From positions 15,302 through 79,301 of the forward strand of contig CANHGW010000007.1 in the NCBI GenBank assembly GCA_947460175.1: a stretch of DNA of 64,000 nucleotides, read 5' to 3'. Source of the stretch: Bacteroidota bacterium (lineage in GTDB: Bacteria; Bacteroidota; Bacteroidia; Chitinophagales; Chitinophagaceae). Below are positions 2,318 to 62,412 of this stretch, piece after piece (the first letter of the stretch is position 1; every line of letters begins with the position of its first letter). The notes beneath the pieces were generated by a model that was not told where the DNA came from, did not search any database, and saw only the letters and a program-made list of their open reading frames with translations. A program made the position numbers and the translations under genes.

Positions 2318-3898
2318 ATGAAAAAAGTAATCAGTATCCATTTATTCTTCACACTACTATTGGTAGGGTTTACATCCCAAGCACAAACAATAGACGATGG
2401 TATTCAAATGGTGAAATACGAACGATTTGAAAGCGCAAAAAATATTTTAACCCCATTGGCTGCTACAGATGCTAAAGCCAATTATTATCTAGGTTTATGC
2501 GAATTGGCCAATGACAATACCATGGGAGCAAAAGCATTGTTTCAAAAATATCCAGATGATGCTGCAAACCTTGCAGGCATGGCTCGTGTTTTCTTCAATG
2601 AAAACAAAGCCCCAGAAGCCATGAGTATGCTTACCAAAGTAGCTAGTAAAGCTAAAAAGAAAGATTGGTCTCCATTTAAATATGCTGCAGATGCCATCAC
2701 TTATTCAGAAGGTGGAGATCCGAATGTAGCAATTGATTGGTATAAAAAAGCAATGGAAATAACTAAAAATGGTGATTTGTATATTGGATCTGGGGATGCT
2801 TATCGTAAAATACAAGGTGGCGGTGGTAATGCCATGACGAATTATGAATATGCAGAAGGCTATTCTGAAACTCAATCCCTTGCCAATCAAAAAATGGGTA
2901 ACCTTTGGTATGCAGCAAAAAACTACGATAGTGCGCTTGCCAAATATGCTCGTGCATCTCAATTAGATGTCAAAAATCCATTGCCTTTTAAAGCATTAGC
3001 AGATGCATACTATCGAATTGCGAAGTATAAAATCTCTAAAGAAAATATTGAGAAATATCTTGAATTATCAGATAAAACAACCGATGATCAAATTCAATAT
3101 GCTAATACACTTTATTTAGCAAAAGAGTATACGCCTGCTATTAATAAAATGACCGAATTAATCTCAAAAGGAATTGAGAAACCTTACATGTATCGTATCA
3201 TTGGTTATAGTCAATACGAAACAAAAGATTATACCAATGCCTTAATGAATATGGACAAATTCTTTGCCAAACAAGATCCTAAAAAAGTAATCCCTTCTGA
3301 TTACACATATTATGGTAAAATCCTTTTGACAGATACATCCAAGGCTTCACAAGCAAGTTCATACTTCCAAAAAGGAATCGATATGGATACAACCAAAGAC
3401 AAAGCACCTCTTCATCGTGAAATAGCTGAATCATTCAAAGACGCTCAAAAATATGCAACAGCAGCTGAGTGGTACAAAAAAACCTTGAATTTGAATACAG
3501 CTAGCGTAGAACCGCTTGATTATTGGTGGAGTGGCGTTATGTATTTTTATGCAAAAGATTATACAAACGCAGAGCCTATGCTGAAAACAATGAGTGAAAA
3601 ATATCCAAATGAGCCATCTAGTTATTACTGGCTTGGTAGAGTGATCACTTCTTCTAAAGACAAAGAATACAAAAACGGCATGGCTACAAATTACTTTACA
3701 CAATGGCTAGGTATGGTAAAAGCCGATGATCCTGCCAAAAAGAATGACCTTATCAAAGCATATACCTACCTTGCTATGGTGGCATATAATAACTCTAAAA
3801 AGGATGAAGCTATTCAGTTTTCAAACAAATTAACAACGCTTGACCCAAATGACAACACTGCCAAACAAATCATGAAGGCTGTTGGCACCATGAAATAA
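2318..3898 (+). CDS. secreted tetratricopeptide-repeat protein
   Basis: An internal ATG at 2318 gives the signal peptide MKKVISIHLFFTLLLVGFTSQAQ. The protein has many A/Y/W-rich 34-aa-like repeats (YYLGL, WYKKA, AEWYKK). Confidence 0.65.
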   Translation: MKKVISIHLFFTLLLVGFTSQAQTIDDGIQMVKYERFESAKNILTPLAATDAKANYYLGLCELANDNTMGAKALFQKYPDDAANLAGMARVFFNENKAPEAMSMLTKVASKAKKKDWSPFKYAADAITYSEGGDPNVAIDWYKKAMEITKNGDLYIGSGDAYRKIQGGGGNAMTNYEYAEGYSETQSLANQKMGNLWYAAKNYDSALAKYARASQLDVKNPLPFKALADAYYRIAKYKISKENIEKYLELSDKTTDDQIQYANTLYLAKEYTPAINKMTELISKGIEKPYMYRIIGYSQYETKDYTNALMNMDKFFAKQDPKKVIPSDYTYYGKILLTDTSKASQASSYFQKGIDMDTTKDKAPLHREIAESFKDAQKYATAAEWYKKTLNLNTASVEPLDYWWSGVMYFYAKDYTNAEPMLKTMSEKYPNEPSSYYWLGRVITSSKDKEYKNGMATNYFTQWLGMVKADDPAKKNDLIKAYTYLAMVAYNNSKKDEAIQFSNKLTTLDPNDNTAKQIMKAVGTMK

Positions 3899-19726: not shown

Positions 19727-22700
19727 TTATTCTTTTGTCAATTTAATCACCTTTGAAGTTATTCCATCATGGATTAATACAGAATATATTCCTGTAGGCA
19801 ATTGCTCAATAGGGAGAGAAATCACCTTAGTTTCATTCAGTACCTCCAATGATGTATTATAAACTTGTTGACCAATAGAATTAATTATACGAATTTCATA
19901 GAATCCATCCGATTCATTTTTTACCATCAAATTGGTATATGAACCCGCTGGATTTGGATATAACTGAATATCACTATTTTCTTGATTACAATTAATCCGC
20001 AATGCTTTTTCAGGACTATATTGGTATTTAGAATCTATATCAACCATTTTAAGTCGATATACATACACTGCTGGATTAGGTTTAGTATCCATGTAAGAAT
20101 AATGTTGTATTCCTTCATTACCTGTAGAATAAACAGAAGCTATTGTTTCAAAATTAGTTGCAACCTTTCGTTCAATATTATAATGAGAAAAATTTACTTC
20201 GTCGTTTACTGTCCAATTAATTTTAGTGCTACAATCACTTTCATACACTACAAATTCTTTAAGAGTTACAGGTAGTGGCAATGTAGGATCTATTAAAGAC
20301 ATTGAGCGTAATCCTATATTATTCGGATGGAATTGTTCTACTTGGTCTTTCAATGGATTAACTTCTACTTCAAATTTCATATTGGAATACATGTTCAGTG
20401 TACTCAATTCATATTCAACTACAATCGTATCGGCACCGGGAAGTGGCTGATAACGTTTTGATTCAATCAATGATTTATTATTAAACCGATCATACATGTA
20501 AAATGAAATCAACATACTATCCATCGGAACATTTGTAAGATTTTCAATTGCTATTCTAATTCGTTTAGTGTTCGGCATACCTCCTTCCGATACTGAGTAC
20601 ATACTTGCAGGATTTAATGCTGCCTCTGGCATAGGAGTATAATAAATTCTCCAATATTTCATTTGCTCTGGCGTTCTAGCACGTTTGTCAGCATTCAACA
20701 TTTCTATTTTCAAGTAAGGGTATTGATTGGCATCGATAAAACTAAGCGAAGTATCGTTTTGAACTTTTGCAATCAATGTTTCGTTTTGATTTTTGCCTAT
20801 ACCATAAATTAAAAACATACTTTTATCATCCGAACCTTGATCCAATGTATATAGCGAGCGTTGAAAATCATTCCAAACAGATGCAGGGCCTATTTTTGGT
20901 GTTGTGATTGTACCTTCGGTTTGTAATATTTTATAATCAAATTCACCATACAATTTCACAGTAGCATCTGCACCTACATATTGCTTTACAGATGATGGCA
21001 CATTTTTTTGAGTCCAAAATATCATTGGTCGATTTTTATAAAATGAGTCAATGGTATTAAAGCCCATATTTTTCAATTTATGATAAAGTGAGACATTAGA
21101 ACCCAATGTCGTCGTATCTGTCTTCCAATGACGTATAAATGTAGAATTAATAATACCACAACCACTACCAACACACAAACGTGGCTGTATCATTACATAA
21201 TACCCTGCAGGTATTGAATCTATAAAATCCATGATGGTTTTTCGAGAAGCTGCAGATAAAAAACTAAATTCAAAAAATGGGTCTTCTTTGATTGAGCCAT
21301 TCGCTATACGACATGGATCAAAACTGCCATATTTACCCATTGCAACATTAATATCTGGTCGAGTATTCAACCATGGTTTCCCTGTCAATGTATCTATAAC
21401 AATAAATTGAAGACTTGAATATCCAGGATAAGGATCACATCCAAAAGTATACAATGTACTACCATTCATCTTTACTAAATATTCAGGCCAGATATAATTA
21501 AAAGGTACAGCCCCGTTCATACATACATTTTGTACTTGAAGCAACTTATTTGTGCTCGTATATGTAAATTGTCTCGATGCAGAATCCAAGTTGATTTTAG
21601 AATATTCATCTTTTTGAAATTGATAATAATGCGATTGATTCCAACCTGGCAAACTTTGATCAATGTAAATAAATGAACTAGTTGCCCAAATCGTTGGTCC
21701 ATTGTTGTTGCTTGTACGCCAGTAATAAACGACACTATCATTGTAAACCAATGTAGGTGTCCATTTAACCACACCACCTGCACTTGTTATAATTGATGAT
21801 TGTTTTATTGGACTATTAAATAATTCTGTTGTGTCTATTTCAAATGTATAGTCCATTACTTCTTCAAAAGGATTCAAGGTGGATGCTTTCAAAGTAATAC
21901 CTTGATTGCCTATAATGCTAAATTCAGTGGGATATACAGGTGTGATTCCACTGTTACGAATTACAAACGTTCTAGTAGAAGTGTTATTCGTCTCCGACAT
22001 TTCAGTTATTGCATTATATCTATCTATAGAAACGATCAATTGATTTGTACCTTTTCCTATATCTCCCATGATAGGCACTCTTAAATTCAATGGTAAATTA
22101 TTTGAAAAGCCCGGCACTTTTTGAACTAATAATGTTTTTTCAGTAAAATCATTCAATCTTCTTTTTACAACGATTTCAACACTATCAGAACTATACTTAC
22201 CTAAATTATTATATAAAACAGACACATCAAACGAATCCATAGCCAGCGACAAATCTGATTGCTTAATTACAATATCTTTTAATTCTATTGAATAATCAGG
22301 TAGTGTTGATGCTGCTAATCGTATAGCAGGATCGCCATTCAATAGAATTTGTTCTGCATGCATTTTGAAAAGAAAATCATTTTGAAAATTAGGTAGTGAA
22401 ATTAATGAGGTTATATTATTAATTAATTGTTCTCCAATACTTTGACCATACATACTCATTCCAATTCTTGCATACAATGAGTCGGTATAAAAACCTAAGT
22501 AACCTGAAAATCCAGTATTAACACTAGCTAAAAATCCAATTGCCCCTGCATTGGGTGTAAATAAAAAACGTTCACTTAAATATTTTTGACCTGTAAATAA
22601 AAATATATTTCCAGCACCACATCCATTAGCAATCATTAGAGGATACTTTTTATTGTTAGAATACTTTTCAGGAAAATCTAACCCATAATCAATTGTAGAT

Positions 22701-24655
22701 GCAGATGAGTGACCAAAAAACTGAACAATAGATGATCCATTATTTATAAATGAATCAATAATCGTATTATTAATCGATTCTTGTTCGGGATTACTGCTTT
22801 TATATACGTTGGTCGCATTCGCACCAAAAAAAGGATTCTCAATAATTATTTTATGCTTTTCGAGCGAAGAAACAATCGGCAATAATTGAAGGCTATCTGA
22901 TGCACCTGCAATTTGCAACACTCTCTTTTGCCACATCTTATTCTCACTCGTTTGATTGGTATTTGTCAATGCGATTTCTTGATCTTTAACTTTATCCAAA
23001 TATGTTTTTATATCATTTGCATTGAATGCTGATAATCGACCAATTGAAATTAAAGGTCTATCATTACTTCCAAAATCTGTGAATAATAAATCAGAACCAG
23101 GTTGACCAAATGTAGGAACAGCAGTAAATGGATATGCAACCGAAGACGCGGCTTTATATGCTATATAAGAATTGTATTCAAGCCCTTTTCCGATTATAAA
23201 TACATGTTTTGGTTTATCAGTCCATGATGCATTTGTGTAAGCATATTCTAAAAAATTACGAATGGCTAAGCCACTGAAATCATAACCATACCCAAATTCA
23301 TTGTAAATATCATTGACAAAAGCAACGGTTGAATTGTAAGCACCACCCGCTACTGAAGAACGATAATTTTTATATGCATCAACATGATTATTGCCATTTC
23401 CATCATTGGTATATTTACTATCTGTAATGATGATATAATTTCCTTGATGCGAATTTTGAGTAAAATTCTTAAATGTTACATTCGTAAGTCCTAGTTTAGA
23501 CTTATAAGCAATATCATTTTTACTTTGTAATACATAAGTATTCGCTATCCCAGATGCTGGTAATAAAAACCTTACTATTCCTGGCAATGAAATATCTCCG
23601 AGTATATAATTTGAAGTAGTAAGATTATATAAAACAGGCTGAATCCCTCCGTGATTGAAGTTAGTTATTTCAATATAGTGGCTAGCTAGTTTAGGTTGTA
23701 TTTCAAATTTAAAAGAAGTTAGGTTGTTGAAATCATAGGTAACTGGATATTTAATTTCCATAGAAGAAATTCCATAGTTATCATTTGCAATACCAGATGG
23801 TTCATACATTATTTTAAATGTATTAGTTGCAGATATCGTTGACATTGGAAACGACCTATTTAATCTAACAAAATCAAAACGAGCATAGGTAGTATCACCT
23901 AGCAAATTATTGTTTGCATACAATTTTATATTATGATTTCCAATGTATCCTCTTCCTACAATTGTTGTTTTTATAGATACATTAGGTGCAGATGGATCTA
24001 TATAAGGATTTGTACAATTGACTACAATTGAATCTTTGTTTGATGTAATGGATTTTACATATCCTTCTTGTTGAAAATGTGACAAGTTAAGATGATACAT
24101 TATTGGGTTTTGATATTGCCCTTCTGCAGCCGAAGGACCTGCAGTAAATGAATTACGATAATTAAAGCGTTGACTTACTAAGCAATAATTTTCTTTAACT
24201 GGCAAGCTAACCAAATTATTTGGTAGTGAATTATAACGTTTATGTCCTGAAGCATTATTATATGTAATAAAATAAACCGCAGTATCTGAAACTAAGTTTT
24301 GCGTAGGATTTAAATTGAGCGTAGAATCTTTGTACAACCGTTTTTCAACATTCCCATTTGCTTTTTCACCATAAAATTCTATAAAATCAGTTGAACTTAA
24401 AACTCCAGTATTAGAAACAAAAATTGGCTGTTCAACGCCATCTCTATATAATTGTAAGTTATCACCTAATACACCAGCAGGCAAACCAATATTGGTTAAT
24501 GCTGAGATAGATATTTTATAAAATCCATCTTGATAAACTTTACACTTGTAATATGATTGATTATAATTGATCCACTCGTTGCCTATATTTTGAGCACTCG
24601 AGTAAGTCGTAAATCCAAGTATGGTAGCCAATAAAAAAAGTGAAAATTTGTTCAT
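19727..24655 (-). CDS. very large secreted peptidase C25 (gingipain)-like protein with a T9SS C-terminal sorting domain
   Basis: Signal peptide. Central candidate catalytic motifs are His (QFFGHSSAS) and Cys (IANGCGAGN). The last 80 aa or so (LYPNPAGSYTNL...GIYSVLI...VIKLTKE) match the type A T9SS CTD pattern. Confidence 0.65.
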   Translation of the reverse strand: MNKFSLFLLATILGFTTYSSAQNIGNEWINYNQSYYKCKVYQDGFYKISISALTNIGLPAGVLGDNLQLYRDGVEQPIFVSNTGVLSSTDFIEFYGEKANGNVEKRLYKDSTLNLNPTQNLVSDTAVYFITYNNASGHKRYNSLPNNLVSLPVKENYCLVSQRFNYRNSFTAGPSAAEGQYQNPIMYHLNLSHFQQEGYVKSITSNKDSIVVNCTNPYIDPSAPNVSIKTTIVGRGYIGNHNIKLYANNNLLGDTTYARFDFVRLNRSFPMSTISATNTFKIMYEPSGIANDNYGISSMEIKYPVTYDFNNLTSFKFEIQPKLASHYIEITNFNHGGIQPVLYNLTTSNYILGDISLPGIVRFLLPASGIANTYVLQSKNDIAYKSKLGLTNVTFKNFTQNSHQGNYIIITDSKYTNDGNGNNHVDAYKNYRSSVAGGAYNSTVAFVNDIYNEFGYGYDFSGLAIRNFLEYAYTNASWTDKPKHVFIIGKGLEYNSYIAYKAASSVAYPFTAVPTFGQPGSDLLFTDFGSNDRPLISIGRLSAFNANDIKTYLDKVKDQEIALTNTNQTSENKMWQKRVLQIAGASDSLQLLPIVSSLEKHKIIIENPFFGANATNVYKSSNPEQESINNTIIDSFINNGSSIVQFFGHSSASTIDYGLDFPEKYSNNKKYPLMIANGCGAGNIFLFTGQKYLSERFLFTPNAGAIGFLASVNTGFSGYLGFYTDSLYARIGMSMYGQSIGEQLINNITSLISLPNFQNDFLFKMHAEQILLNGDPAIRLAASTLPDYSIELKDIVIKQSDLSLAMDSFDVSVLYNNLGKYSSDSVEIVVKRRLNDFTEKTLLVQKVPGFSNNLPLNLRVPIMGDIGKGTNQLIVSIDRYNAITEMSETNNTSTRTFVIRNSGITPVYPTEFSIIGNQGITLKASTLNPFEEVMDYTFEIDTTELFNSPIKQSSIITSAGGVVKWTPTLVYNDSVVYYWRTSNNNGPTIWATSSFIYIDQSLPGWNQSHYYQFQKDEYSKINLDSASRQFTYTSTNKLLQVQNVCMNGAVPFNYIWPEYLVKMNGSTLYTFGCDPYPGYSSLQFIVIDTLTGKPWLNTRPDINVAMGKYGSFDPCRIANGSIKEDPFFEFSFLSAASRKTIMDFIDSIPAGYYVMIQPRLCVGSGCGIINSTFIRHWKTDTTTLGSNVSLYHKLKNMGFNTIDSFYKNRPMIFWTQKNVPSSVKQYVGADATVKLYGEFDYKILQTEGTITTPKIGPASVWNDFQRSLYTLDQGSDDKSMFLIYGIGKNQNETLIAKVQNDTSLSFIDANQYPYLKIEMLNADKRARTPEQMKYWRIYYTPMPEAALNPASMYSVSEGGMPNTKRIRIAIENLTNVPMDSMLISFYMYDRFNNKSLIESKRYQPLPGADTIVVEYELSTLNMYSNMKFEVEVNPLKDQVEQFHPNNIGLRSMSLIDPTLPLPVTLKEFVVYESDCSTKINWTVNDEVNFSHYNIERKVATNFETIASVYSTGNEGIQHYSYMDTKPNPAVYVYRLKMVDIDSKYQYSPEKALRINCNQENSDIQLYPNPAGSYTNLMVKNESDGFYEIRIINSIGQQVYNTSLEVLNETKVISLPIEQLPTGIYSVLIHDGITSKVIKLTKE

Positions 24656-57303: not shown

Positions 57304-57996
57304 TTATAAAATACCTTCATCTGCAAAACTAAAATAAGCATTTTCGGCTAGTATTACGTGATCCAATAAAGTCAATTCTAGTACTTTGCCACCTTCTTTT
57401 ATTCGTTGTGTCAATACTTTGTCGGCTTCGCTTGGTGTCAAATTGCCGGATGGATGATTGTGTGCCAATACAATTCTCGAAGTTCCTGTAATCTCAAGAG
57501 CTTTTTTGAAAATAATACGCGGATCTACAACAGTTGAAGTCATACCCCCTTTACTGATAAGTTCTATGGACAATACTCTGTGTGCCTGATTGAGGTATAC
57601 AACATAAAACTCTTCAGCTTGTTTGTCAAGAAAATAAGAGTTCAATAAATTAAAAATGTCTTTACTCGTATTGATTTTAGGTTTTTCGAGAGCCGAAGCC
57701 AATTGCCGTCGTTTTCCCAATTCAAGAGCTGTCAATATTGTAATCGCTTTCTTTTCTCCAATTCCTTTCACTTTACTGATATCTTTTAATGTAAGCTTTC
57801 CCAGTTCCAACAAATTGTCATTACCTAAGGAAAGAATTTCCTTAGCAATATCCAAAGCACTCTTCTGTTTTGAACCTGTATTGATTAAAATTGCCAATAA
57901 TTCAGCATTCGTTAAGGCACTTGGGCCTTTTTGAATCATTTTTTCCCTAGGTCGCTCATCTAAAGTCCAGTTTTTTATACTTTTAAAATTTTCCAT
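57304..57996 (-). CDS. radC: RadC-family JAB-domain protein
   Basis: HhH region (VKGIGEKKA) and JAMM motif LAHNHPSG. The ATG at 57996 is preferred over the TTG at 58005. Confidence 0.85.
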   Translation of the reverse strand: MENFKSIKNWTLDERPREKMIQKGPSALTNAELLAILINTGSKQKSALDIAKEILSLGNDNLLELGKLTLKDISKVKGIGEKKAITILTALELGKRRQLASALEKPKINTSKDIFNLLNSYFLDKQAEEFYVVYLNQAHRVLSIELISKGGMTSTVVDPRIIFKKALEITGTSRIVLAHNHPSGNLTPSEADKVLTQRIKEGGKVLELTLLDHVILAENAYFSFADEGIL

Positions 57997-58000
57997 ATTT

Positions 58001-58092
58001 ACCAAATTCTAATTGGAAACTACCAAATACTCATTAAAAAGTGCAATTTACTCATTTGTCTTCAAAAAAAATAGCCTACCAATATACATTTG
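58001..58092 (+). promoter_or_regulatory. upstream module of sRNA copy 1: three 21-bp-phased 13-mers plus -7 box
   Basis: 13-mers start at 58001 (ACCAAATTCTAAT), 58022 (ACCAAATACTCAT) and 58043 (GCAATTTACTCAT). TACATTTG is at 58085-58092. Confidence 0.55.
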
Positions 58093-58095
58093 CAT

Positions 58096-58153
58096 CAAGT
58101 AGGTTATTTATGTGATTTTTCAATCAGAGCCCATCGTCAAGATGGGCTTTTTT
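58096..58153 (+). ncRNA. candidate small RNA, paralog 1
   Basis: The conserved block AGTAGGTTATTTATGTGATTTTTCAATC starts 6 nt after the -7 box. It ends in the terminator AGCCCATC-GTCAA-GATGGGCT plus a T-run. Confidence 0.55.
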
Positions 58154-58286
58154 GTTTTTATTCCTTTTTTTGAGACTTTATCATTATAATTCATATTTAA
58201 AACTAGTTGATTATTTTAATAGCTTAAAAATCAGAAATTTCACTTGAAAGAAATTAATTTAAAATTTCAATTGAAACATTTAATTC

Positions 58287-58377
58287 ACCAAATACTCATC
58301 TTAAACTACCAAATACTCATCTTAAACTACCAAATACTCATTTTGCCCAACAAAAATATATATTCACTTTATATTTG
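58287..58377 (+). promoter_or_regulatory. upstream module of sRNA copy 2: perfect 21-bp tandem repeat x3 plus -7 box
   Basis: ACCAAATACTCAT occurs at 58287, 58308 and 58329. TATATTTG is at 58370-58377. Confidence 0.6.
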
Positions 58378-58380
58378 CAC

Positions 58381-58441
58381 TCAGTAGGTTATTTATGTGA
58401 CTTTTTCAATCACAGGCCCATCGCAAGATGGGCTTTTTTTA
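58381..58441 (+). ncRNA. candidate small RNA, paralog 2
   Basis: Same conserved 5' block, terminator GCCCATC-GCAA-GATGGGC plus T8. Confidence 0.55.
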
Positions 58442-58507
58442 TTTCGATATCTTGATTTATTACATACATTTAATTTATCGATATATATGTGTTTGAATAC
58501 ATATTTA

Positions 58508-58599
58508 TCCAAATTCTCATAGATTATTACCAAATACTCATTTAAAACGACCGAATACTCATTTAACTATAAAAAGTTAGCTCAACAGCTATACATTTG
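58508..58599 (+). promoter_or_regulatory. upstream module of sRNA copy 3: three 21-bp-phased 13-mers plus -7 box
   Basis: 13-mers start at 58508 (TCCAAATTCTCAT), 58529 (ACCAAATACTCAT) and 58550 (ACCGAATACTCAT). TACATTTG is at 58592-58599. Confidence 0.55.
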
Positions 58600-58602
58600 T
58601 TC

Positions 58603-58662
58603 TCAGTAGGTTATTTATGTGATTTTTCAATCCGAAGCCCATCGTAAGATGGGCTTTTTTTT
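58603..58662 (+). ncRNA. candidate small RNA, paralog 3
   Basis: Same conserved 5' block, terminator AGCCCATC-GTAA-GATGGGCT plus T8. The hairpin abuts the stop of the convergent NUDIX gene. Confidence 0.55.
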
Positions 58663-59263
58663 ATACTATCCGAAACAAATCTTGAATAGATTCATAGGTA
58701 TTGTTTAATTGAAATTGAATATTGTTCAAGTGTATCCATAGCGCTTTTTTAATTCCTTCTGCCTCTTGTGGAATCAGTATCAAATCATCGGATGTCATTT
58801 TGTACCAATAAGTGGTTTTAAAAACCATGGAATCTTCTAAATATAAATGGTAAGTAGTTAAAAGATGATGTTGAATAACCAATGATTGAACACCCGTTTC
58901 TTCTTTTACTTCTCTTACTGCACATTCTTCAATGGACTCTCCAGGATCTAATTTCCCTTTTGGCAAATCCCATTTTTTTCTACGATATATAAACAACACT
59001 TCATTCTTTGAATTAAAGACAAGTCCACCAGCTGCAGTAATAGAGCTGAGAGAAGATGAAATGATTGATAAATTAGTTTCAATATTTCCTTCTATAATGA
59101 AATGCTGAATATCTGATACCATCAGCTGATCTAAAATATAATTCAACTTCTGAGAATTCAACTCAAATACTATATAGGCATTTTTTAGTTGCAATTCATC
59201 GATCAATGTTCGATGATTCTCGATAAGATATATTCGTTTATCGTTAAAGTTGATTTTAATCAT
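58661..59263 (-). CDS. NUDIX hydrolase
   Basis: Nudix box GKLDPGESIEECAVREVKEETG. Confidence 0.8.
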   Translation of the reverse strand: MIKINFNDKRIYLIENHRTLIDELQLKNAYIVFELNSQKLNYILDQLMVSDIQHFIIEGNIETNLSIISSSLSSITAAGGLVFNSKNEVLFIYRRKKWDLPKGKLDPGESIEECAVREVKEETGVQSLVIQHHLLTTYHLYLEDSMVFKTTYWYKMTSDDLILIPQEAEGIKKALWIHLNNIQFQLNNTYESIQDLFRIV

Positions 59264-62043: not shown

Positions 62044-62412
62044 ATGCAAGAATTAATCAACAAATTGATGAGTGAAGTAGGTTTAACTGCTGAACAAGCT
62101 CAAAAAACAACCACAACCGTAATGGATTTTGTCAAATCCAAATTACCATCTTCTCTTTCAGGTAATCTAGATGCTATGTTCTCTGGCGTTAAAGGTGAAG
62201 TAAAAGAAGAAAGTTATCAAGAAAAAGCAAGTGAGTTTGCAGATGCTACTAAAGAAAAACTAGAAGATTTTGCAGGTGATGCAAAAGAAAAATTAGAAGA
62301 TATAGCTGGTGAAGCAAAAGAAAAATTATCTGAAGCTGCAGATAAAGCTGAGGAAATGGCTAAAGATGCTTTAGGCAAATTGAAAGGATTATTTGGCGGT
62401 GGAGATAAATAA
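62044..62412 (+). CDS. small acidic protein with tandem 11-residue amphipathic repeats
   Basis: 122 aa containing DAKEKLEDIAG / EAKEKLSEAAD / KAEEMAKDALG repeats. Confidence 0.45.
   Translation: MQELINKLMSEVGLTAEQAQKTTTTVMDFVKSKLPSSLSGNLDAMFSGVKGEVKEESYQEKASEFADATKEKLEDFAGDAKEKLEDIAGEAKEKLSEAADKAEEMAKDALGKLKGLFGGGDK

Follow-up and report, generated by a model that had tools for sequence, protein, structure and literature searches.

The closest described parallels to the locus considered here come from LytTR-type response regulators and from families of sibling small RNAs (sRNAs). In Clostridium perfringens, the VirR boxes of the VirS/VirR system drive the sRNAs VR-RNA, VirT and VirU, plus pfoA; these boxes are 12–13-nt imperfect direct repeats, about 21 bp apart from centre to centre, which abut the promoter with strict helical phasing, and several of the direct VirR targets are small RNAs that spread the signal. 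Elsewhere, whole sets of sibling sRNAs stand under one response regulator, as for Qrr1-5 (LuxO), csRNA1-5 (CiaR) and LhrC1-5 (LisR), where near-identical short transcripts, some of them in tandem, each have a regulator site of their own and share a conserved seed. The Bacteroidota are, to our knowledge, mostly without Hfq; sRNA regulation in this phylum is poorly mapped, and its many LytS/LytTR systems are almost uncharacterised. Here we describe a tandem array of three sRNA units in a 64,000-nt stretch of a Chitinophagaceae genome (Bacteroidota; hereafter the window, meaning the whole stretch), in which each sRNA promoter is preceded by three phased 13-mers that appear to form an operator of the LytTR kind.

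LytTR operators are 9–11-nt repeats separated by 11–13 nt (PMC4847170). The Escherichia coli systems YpdA/YpdB and BtsS/BtsR conform to this pattern, with direct repeats of about 10 nt and an 11–13-nt spacer, the strong site and then the weak one being filled sequentially and cooperatively (PMC4847170). In Staphylococcus aureus, the LytTR regulator AgrA recognizes direct repeats that sit just upstream of intrinsically suboptimal promoters, agr P2 and P3 (PMC4227749). Of the two, one places the two-component operon under its own control, whereas the product of the other is a regulatory RNA, RNAIII.

Set beside these examples, the operator logic of the window array is common to known LytTR systems; what sets it apart is the phylum, the kind of promoter, a third site in a graded series and a tandem array of variable copy number. 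VirR promoters carry two boxes whereas the units here carry three, and a Firmicutes sigma-70 −35/−10 promoter stands where the array has a Bacteroidota −7 box. The sRNAs that VirR drives are, moreover, single-copy and unrelated in sequence, and the VirR motif itself (CCCAGTT...CAC) is unrelated. The division of labor at agr has its likeness here, where some genomes show an apparently autoregulated LytS/LytTR operon and others the sRNA promoters, but AgrC is a peptide-sensing kinase of the HPK10 type rather than a PF06580 LytS-type kinase, the AgrA repeats number two and not three, and RNAIII is a single-copy transcript of 514 nt. The E. coli systems share kinase and regulator families with the candidates below, and their ordered filling fits the graded site strength of the array; their targets, however, are transporter genes and not sRNAs, with one promoter per regulon and a different motif, GGCATTTCAT. 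The sibling sRNA sets, in turn, answer to NtrC-type regulators with sigma-54 or to OmpR-type regulators, and none is from Bacteroidota. Unlike those sets, the arrays here reach six or more copies, in numbers that vary between strains.

The array spans positions 57990–58667 of the window as three tandem units, whose successive starts lie 286 and 221 bp apart and whose aligned columns are on average 84% identical (Table 1). All three have the same layout: three 13-mers at exact 21-bp spacing, a −7 box of the form TAnnTTTG, and an sRNA of about 57 nt with its own terminator. The 13-mers share the consensus (A/G)CCAAATACTCAT, a DNA motif repeated every 21 bp, and all nine lie on the + strand. A first-pass annotation had described them as nine copies of a 13-mer in three phased triplets; the coordinates and the phasing hold, but just five of the nine sites are exact, and the remainder carry one, two, two and four mismatches. 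The most divergent of them, the proximal site of unit 1, escapes a 2-mismatch search; the same variant also fills the proximal position in locus L056. Other details of that annotation are borne out. The triplet of unit 2 is indeed a perfect repeat (58287–58341; period 21, 2.6 copies, 100% matches in Tandem Repeats Finder), made of three 13-mers and two identical 8-nt spacers; the estimate of 29–30 bp between the third site and the −7 box agrees, within counting convention, with the measured distances; and the radC ATG does lie by the first triplet, at 57996 on the − strand. At no more than one mismatch, the window contains six 13-mers against 0.21 expected, a count reached in none of 100 shuffles. 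All six lie on the + strand inside 541 bp, and no further 13-mers at this threshold occur in the window, as they would if the motif were a dispersed repeat without phasing. An AT-rich palindrome (58256–58285; AATTTAAAATTTCAATTG / CAATTGAAACATTTAATT, 83% complementary) is found directly upstream of the distal site of unit 2.

Table 1. Features of the sRNA array and its flanking genes (window coordinates), with the phased sites of four kinase–LytTR operons from other genomes (coordinates of the respective locus)
Feature	Position	Strand	Description
radC (RadC JAB domain + UPF0758_N)	57304..57996	−	divergent from unit 1
Unit 1 distal site	58001..58013	+	ACCAAATTCTAAT, 2 mismatches; 5 nt from radC start codon
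Unit 1 middle site	58022..58034	+	ACCAAATACTCAT, exact
Unit 1 proximal site	58043..58055	+	GCAATTTACTCAT, 4 mismatches; TACTCAT core intact
Unit 1 −7 box	58085..58092	+	TACATTTG; 29 nt past proximal-site end
sRNA copy 1 (~56 nt)	58098..58153	+	conserved 5' AGUAGGUUAUUUAUGUGAUUUUUCAAUC, then GC hairpin and U-run
Unit 2 distal site	58287..58299	+	exact 13-mer
Unit 2 middle site	58308..58320	+	exact 13-mer
Unit 2 proximal site	58329..58341	+	exact 13-mer
Unit 2 −7 box	58370..58377	+	TATATTTG; 28 nt past proximal-site end
sRNA copy 2 (~58 nt)	58383..58440	+	from repeat alignment and terminator hairpin
Unit 3 distal site	58508..58520	+	TCCAAATTCTCAT, 2 mismatches
Unit 3 middle site	58529..58541	+	exact 13-mer
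Unit 3 proximal site	58550..58562	+	ACCGAATACTCAT, 1 mismatch
Unit 3 −7 box	58592..58599	+	TACATTTG; 29 nt past proximal-site end
sRNA copy 3 (~58 nt)	58605..58662	+	U-run (58655-58663 region) overlaps stop codon of convergent NUDIX gene
NUDIX hydrolase gene	58661..59263	−	convergent with array; syntenic marker
L216, operon sites	2947 and 2968		ACCGAATCCTCAT twice
L217, operon sites	2908 and 2929		
L218 (Roseivirga misakiensis), operon sites	2908 and 2929		ACCGAATTCTAAT and ACCGAATCCTCAT
L219, operon sites	2908 and 2929		

The same architecture recurs well beyond the window. An exact search with a 17-mer of the sRNA returned 88 metagenome stretches, about half of them chance matches and the remainder true copies; together with the copies among the matches listed in a genome scan for two degenerate sites 21 bp apart, these amount to 53 distinct sRNA promoters. 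The scan itself returned at least 119 stretches, an arbitrary subset of loci, and many of its matches are noise: tandem repeats of a 7-nt unit, in cyanobacteria and other phyla, fit a 21-bp pattern as well. The real matches among those listed are sRNA promoters of Chitinophagaceae and of unclassified Bacteroidota metagenome-assembled genomes (MAGs), plus about 22 non-sRNA promoters, likewise in Bacteroidota. Two to four sites precede the sRNA in 44 of the 53 promoters, which come from diverse Bacteroidota (three sites in 31, two in 12, four in one); four others have a single site and five are without any. Of 77 pairs of neighboring sites, 74 keep the 21-bp spacing and three are set at 20 bp; the register of the sites to the promoter is fixed as well, so that the phasing seen in the window is conserved in related loci. 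With the G of GTAGG as reference, 41 of 48 promoters have the start of the proximal site at −56 or −55, and in 41 of 43 the −7 box follows 28–29 nt after the end of that site, a count to be read with some reserve because the offset search broke ties toward 29 nt and thereby flattered weak boxes. The box itself, present in all three window units, stands at −15 to −13 in 41 of the 53 copies.

Within these promoters, information content is high in the 13-mers, chiefly at T7, C9, T10, C11 and A12, low in the 8-nt spacers save for two A's, and vanishes downstream of the proximal site; the flanks diverge. Site strength is graded, with position weight matrix (PWM) scores that average 17.2 at proximal sites, 15.7 at middle sites and 7.7 at distal ones (43 promoters); the last, the weakest class, often read AAATTCT. 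The core promoters also mostly lack a familiar part of Bacteroidota sigma-A promoters, a TTTG −33 element some 17–21 nt upstream of the −7 box: a −33-like TTTG is found in 4 of the 44 site-bearing promoters, as against three of the five site-less copies, where it is spaced at 16–18 nt (L035, L038 and L054; all five site-less copies come from digester- or gut-type contigs). That the −33 element is mostly missing where sites are present fits dependence on an activator. In sum, spacers and flanks diverge, but the sites, their 21-bp phasing and their placement relative to the −7 box are retained, which supports the view of the 13-mers as binding sites, and we consider it very probable, from these patterns of conservation, that they are bound by some transcription factor.

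The identity of that factor is suggested by the genes that accompany the sites in other Bacteroidota. Among open reading frames (ORFs) no more than 3.5 kb from the listed non-sRNA sites, the most recurrent families are the LytS kinase (four loci) and the LytTR regulator (three), and no other transcription factor family recurs there. Sites lie within about 130 nt of LytS/LytTR genes in Roseivirga (L112), Arcticibacter (L151), Lewinellaceae (L164) and Salibacteraceae (L183), which represent four different orders. For example, in L112, a Roseivirga MAG, two sites lie directly upstream of an operon that encodes a PF06580 (LytS-type) kinase and a receiver-LytTR regulator. Four full-length orthologues of the L112 kinase, at 38–49% identity, each belong to a kinase-LytTR operon with two 21-bp-phased upstream sites (L216–L219; Table 1), and in L217, L218 and L219 the distance from the sites to the ATG (at 3001) is identical. 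The variant CCGAATCCTCA is also found in the sRNA promoters of L019. The site pair thus stands in the operon's own promoter in five of five orthologous LytS-LytTR operons, all from genomes other than the window's, and its persistence across such deep divergence bears the mark of autoregulation. Phased sites do not accompany all LytTR systems, as the LytTR regulators of L211, L214 and L215 illustrate: these are 43–44% identical to the L183 regulator, and no phased sites were found near them.

The LytS/LytTR neighbors, the site pair in all five operons and the lack of half-sites every 10–11 bp narrow the class of regulator to LytTR. Like known LytTR operators, the sites are direct repeats at a period of about 21 bp, abut a presumably weak core promoter and, in other genomes, occupy the promoters of kinase-regulator operons. 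An OmpR/PhoB-type box would show half-sites at 10–11 bp; here the mean PWM score at +10/+11 within the 21-bp unit is at background (−30, −22), with no secondary peak, as against +8 to +17 at 0, 21 and 42. The first-pass annotation had proposed an activator of the response-regulator or AraC type, binding cooperatively on one face of the DNA and placing all three sRNAs under common control, and the conserved period and register lend support to that proposal. We therefore judge it likely, on genomic association and operator geometry, that the sites are bound by a LytTR response regulator and that it activates transcription.

A plausible mechanism follows from this arrangement. Each 13-mer would dock a single LytTR DNA-binding domain. 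The protein carrying that domain would be a two-component response regulator, and its predicted partner a LytS-family (PF06580) sensor kinase whose gene would lie elsewhere in the genome. Phosphorylated regulators would bind head-to-tail on one DNA face, every 21 bp or two helical turns. The strongest site, the promoter-proximal one, would end at about −42, 28–29 nt upstream of the TAnnTTTG box, in a promoter that has no −33 element itself. Cooperative binding would fill the middle and distal sites, which are weaker, and the bound regulator would then recruit RNA polymerase to transcribe the terminated sRNA of about 57 nt. With the same sites on every copy of the array, all copies may fire together, such that the output is amplified.

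Several observations weigh against a LytTR activator, beyond the arbitrary sampling of the scan and the tie-breaking of the offset search mentioned above. Three sites per promoter are unusual, as canonical LytTR operators have two. The site-adjacent regulators are 36–37% identical to one another, no closer than they are to LytTR regulators of site-less loci, and pairwise identities define no orthologous group of putative site-binding regulators. The autoregulated operons, too, come from lineages other than the window's, and operon and sRNA array occur together in none of the genomes examined. Finally, the first-pass annotation had seen no obvious regulator gene nearby, and this is also the outcome of domain and homology scans: Pfam detected no transcription factor domain in 50 of the window's 53 ORFs that reach 110 aa (all but the 1642-aa ORF and two that are nested in larger ones), and neither phmmer, run on six-frame ORFs of at least 90 aa, nor Pfam found a LytS/LytTR relative in the 64-kb window.

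These same points could be turned toward a factor of another family—an OmpR/PhoB winged-helix response regulator, for instance, or one of AraC type—for which the LytS/LytTR operons would be targets and not the source of the regulator. The lack of a regulator gene in the window, that of detectable orthology among the site-adjacent LytTR proteins and the departure from the textbook pair of sites would all be accommodated, and in L218 the gene for a hybrid HisKA kinase lies directly upstream of the LytS operon. We nonetheless consider such a factor unlikely. No second family recurs by the sites among the matches listed, the half-sites that OmpR/PhoB proteins call for are not seen, and the sites in the promoter of all five orthologous operons look like classic autoregulation; a 13-mer plus 8-nt spacer, moreover, yields the 21-bp direct-repeat period that the LytTR rule describes (PMC4847170).

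A second alternative accepts the binding sites and reassigns their role, as operators for a repressor or as control elements of the divergent radC gene, with sRNA activation of secondary importance. Because the distal site of unit 1 lies so close to the radC start codon, the radC promoter must overlap the site region, and radC flanks the array in nine loci. Units 2 and 3, however, have no divergent gene, and the same is true of most copies in the longer arrays of L001 and L056, all of which keep their sites. The register, too, is fixed to the sRNA −7 box and not to radC, and sites placed upstream of a core promoter that lacks a −33 element have the geometry of an activator, from which we infer activation rather than repression and regard this alternative as improbable. 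More doubtful still is that the repeats are a mere by-product of recent tandem duplication, a 21-bp minisatellite within a duplicated sRNA unit and without binding function: the perfect repeat of unit 2, the variable copy number between near-identical strains and the unrelated 7-nt tandem repeats caught by pattern scans are what one might expect of it, but the comparative data contradict it: the 13-mer, its period and its distance to the promoter persist in several orders although the 8-nt spacers vary, and the site pair also occurs at unrelated single-copy promoters.

The proposed output of the LytTR-controlled promoters is the sRNA itself, the start of which we place from the position of the −7 box. 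All three units share the invariant 5' part AGTAGGTTATTTATGTGA(C)TTTTTCAATC, followed by a GC-rich hairpin with a T-run; terminator-like hairpins lie at 58126-58150, 58414-58435 and 58634-58657, against 0.2 in shuffled sequence. As the U-run of copy 3 overlaps the stop codon of the NUDIX gene, its hairpin probably terminates both transcripts. The sRNA is kept across Bacteroidota, including Chitinophagaceae MAGs, as a conserved 5' stretch of about 25 nt joined to lineage-specific terminators: true copies elsewhere have the same 5' sequence, then TTTTTCA, then an individual terminator, although the search design accounts in part for the invariance of the 17-mer and of the TTTT.CA just downstream. 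RNAalifold, applied to 23 copies, returns a weak invariant 5' hairpin only (−3.4 kcal/mol), and the terminators are too divergent for MAFFT to permit covariation statistics. A conserved mini-ORF can be set aside, since the variant GTAGGTTATTTTTGTGA, found in L056 and L083, removes the ATG of the ATG-TGA inside the sRNA. The conserved 5' stretch of about 25 nt is largely unstructured, and it is most likely through this part that the sRNA would act in trans, either by base pairing or by protein binding.

The sRNA matches no Rfam family. Rfam 15 at gathering thresholds gives no match in the array region, and the best sub-threshold alignments (isrD at 26 bits vs 37, Ysr49 at 26 vs 95) rest mainly on the terminator hairpin and U-run. 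Full-text literature searches with the sRNA sequence, in DNA and in RNA letters, returned nothing relevant, as did a search on LytTR, Bacteroidetes and sRNA together, and the sequence is absent from the Flavobacterium psychrophilum transcriptome paper and its supplements. Among the 51 translation-initiation regions of the window, the best predicted duplex with the sRNA (−14.9 kcal/mol) is weaker than the mean best of shuffled seeds (−15.9 kcal/mol). Elsewhere, four loci (L007:2072-2088, L010:31-47, L018 and L091), on contigs of 42–44% GC, have within an ORF an antisense stretch of 23 nt identical to the sRNA 5' end; this ORF resembles sigma-70 region 2 (...STFIWMVVRNHINNLLKAKKE...), and its mRNA would pair perfectly with the 5' end of the sRNA. 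The identity could reflect chance, given that about 50 random 17-mer matches are expected, or it could mark a target.

The operator also appears to reach protein-coding genes. Of the 22 listed non-sRNA promoters, 20 have a −7-like box 28–29 nt past the proximal site, with ties again resolved toward 29 nt, and 14 of these score at least five of six box positions. In L098, L130 and L141 the sites precede proteins of about 170 aa with tails for the type IX secretion system (T9SS), followed by collagen-repeat (collagen-triple-helix) proteins, and in L103, L152 and L184 they precede collagen-like lipoproteins of about 180 aa. Further genes below sites encode an FGE-sulfatase-domain protein, a DUF5128 lipoprotein, a DUF4397 lipoprotein and a Peptidase_S74-domain protein. 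The T9SS-tailed and collagen-like proteins, as the recurrent protein-coding targets of the two-site operator, suggest a cell-surface regulon. Short terminated transcripts unrelated to the window sRNA follow phased sites in three other loci (L151:639-800; L183:5380-5630, − strand; L185:141-400), and those of L151 and L183 directly adjoin LytS/LytTR genes. The operator may therefore drive different sRNAs in different lineages.

Taken at its broadest, the proposal is that LytS/LytTR systems across several orders of Bacteroidota feed a conserved, copy-variable array of one ~57-nt sRNA through a shared operator of three phased sites, with collagen-like and T9SS-secreted surface proteins and the system's own operon under that same operator. 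On present comparative evidence we hold the chances of this full circuit to be about even. If true, Bacteroidota would have an equivalent of the agr/RNAIII or LuxO/Qrr circuits. The T9SS cargo and collagen-like lipoproteins that appear as co-regulated genes elsewhere hint at control of the cell surface. The module supplies a motif, a promoter geometry, a conserved sRNA with its 5' stretch of about 25 nt, and a candidate regulator family with seemingly autoregulating operons, by which the whole regulon becomes directly testable. It also gives a means of finding and annotating the sRNA and its regulon across thousands of Bacteroidota genomes, environmental as well as host-associated.

The genomic setting of the array is itself partly conserved. 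Beyond the NUDIX gene lie a phosphoribosyltransferase-domain gene (orotate phosphoribosyltransferase-like) and then glyS. Among 28 sRNA loci, NUDIX accompanies the array in 16, NUDIX/pyrE-like genes in 14–16 and radC in 9; NUDIX, pyrE, radC and glyS are the only recurrent neighbors, with no regulator gene among them. The NUDIX protein has an intact Nudix box, is Ndx1/Ap4A-hydrolase-like and bears a 75-aa N-terminal extension without a Pfam match. A role for it as an NrtR-like regulator was considered and rejected: the Nudix box is intact, the nearest structural relatives are Ndx1/Ap4A hydrolases, no sign of a helix-turn-helix domain was found, and gene and array are convergent. Two cultured species, Chryseobacterium koreense and Dokdonia sinensis, have no intergenic room for an array at their NUDIX loci, and no isolate carrier was found in this way.

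Among near-identical strains the assembled copy number differs. The near-identical strain L001 (ENA ERZ19570727; 10603-11920) has six sRNA units between NUDIX and radC as against three in the window, and window unit 3 resembles the 5' part of L001 unit 3 fused to the 3' flank of L001 unit 6; three versus six units may reflect either real copy-number variation or assembly collapse. The assemblies L002 and L003 break off within the array, and the L056 array has at least seven sRNA copies. As to the wider window, its GC content is 30–40%, mostly 31–37%, and it encodes T9SS sorting domains; with the −7 box, these features point to a MAG of a Flavobacteriia-like member of the Bacteroidota. Its proteins recur in NCBI, ENA and Logan assemblies. 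A 33-bp tandem repeat at 62236-62328 (2.4–2.7 copies, 84–88% matches) lies in an apolipoprotein-like ORF of 122 aa (62044-62412), where it yields 11-residue protein repeats, and this gene is syntenic in several related loci. The largest ORF of the window, of 1642 aa, runs from 19727 to 24655 on the − strand.

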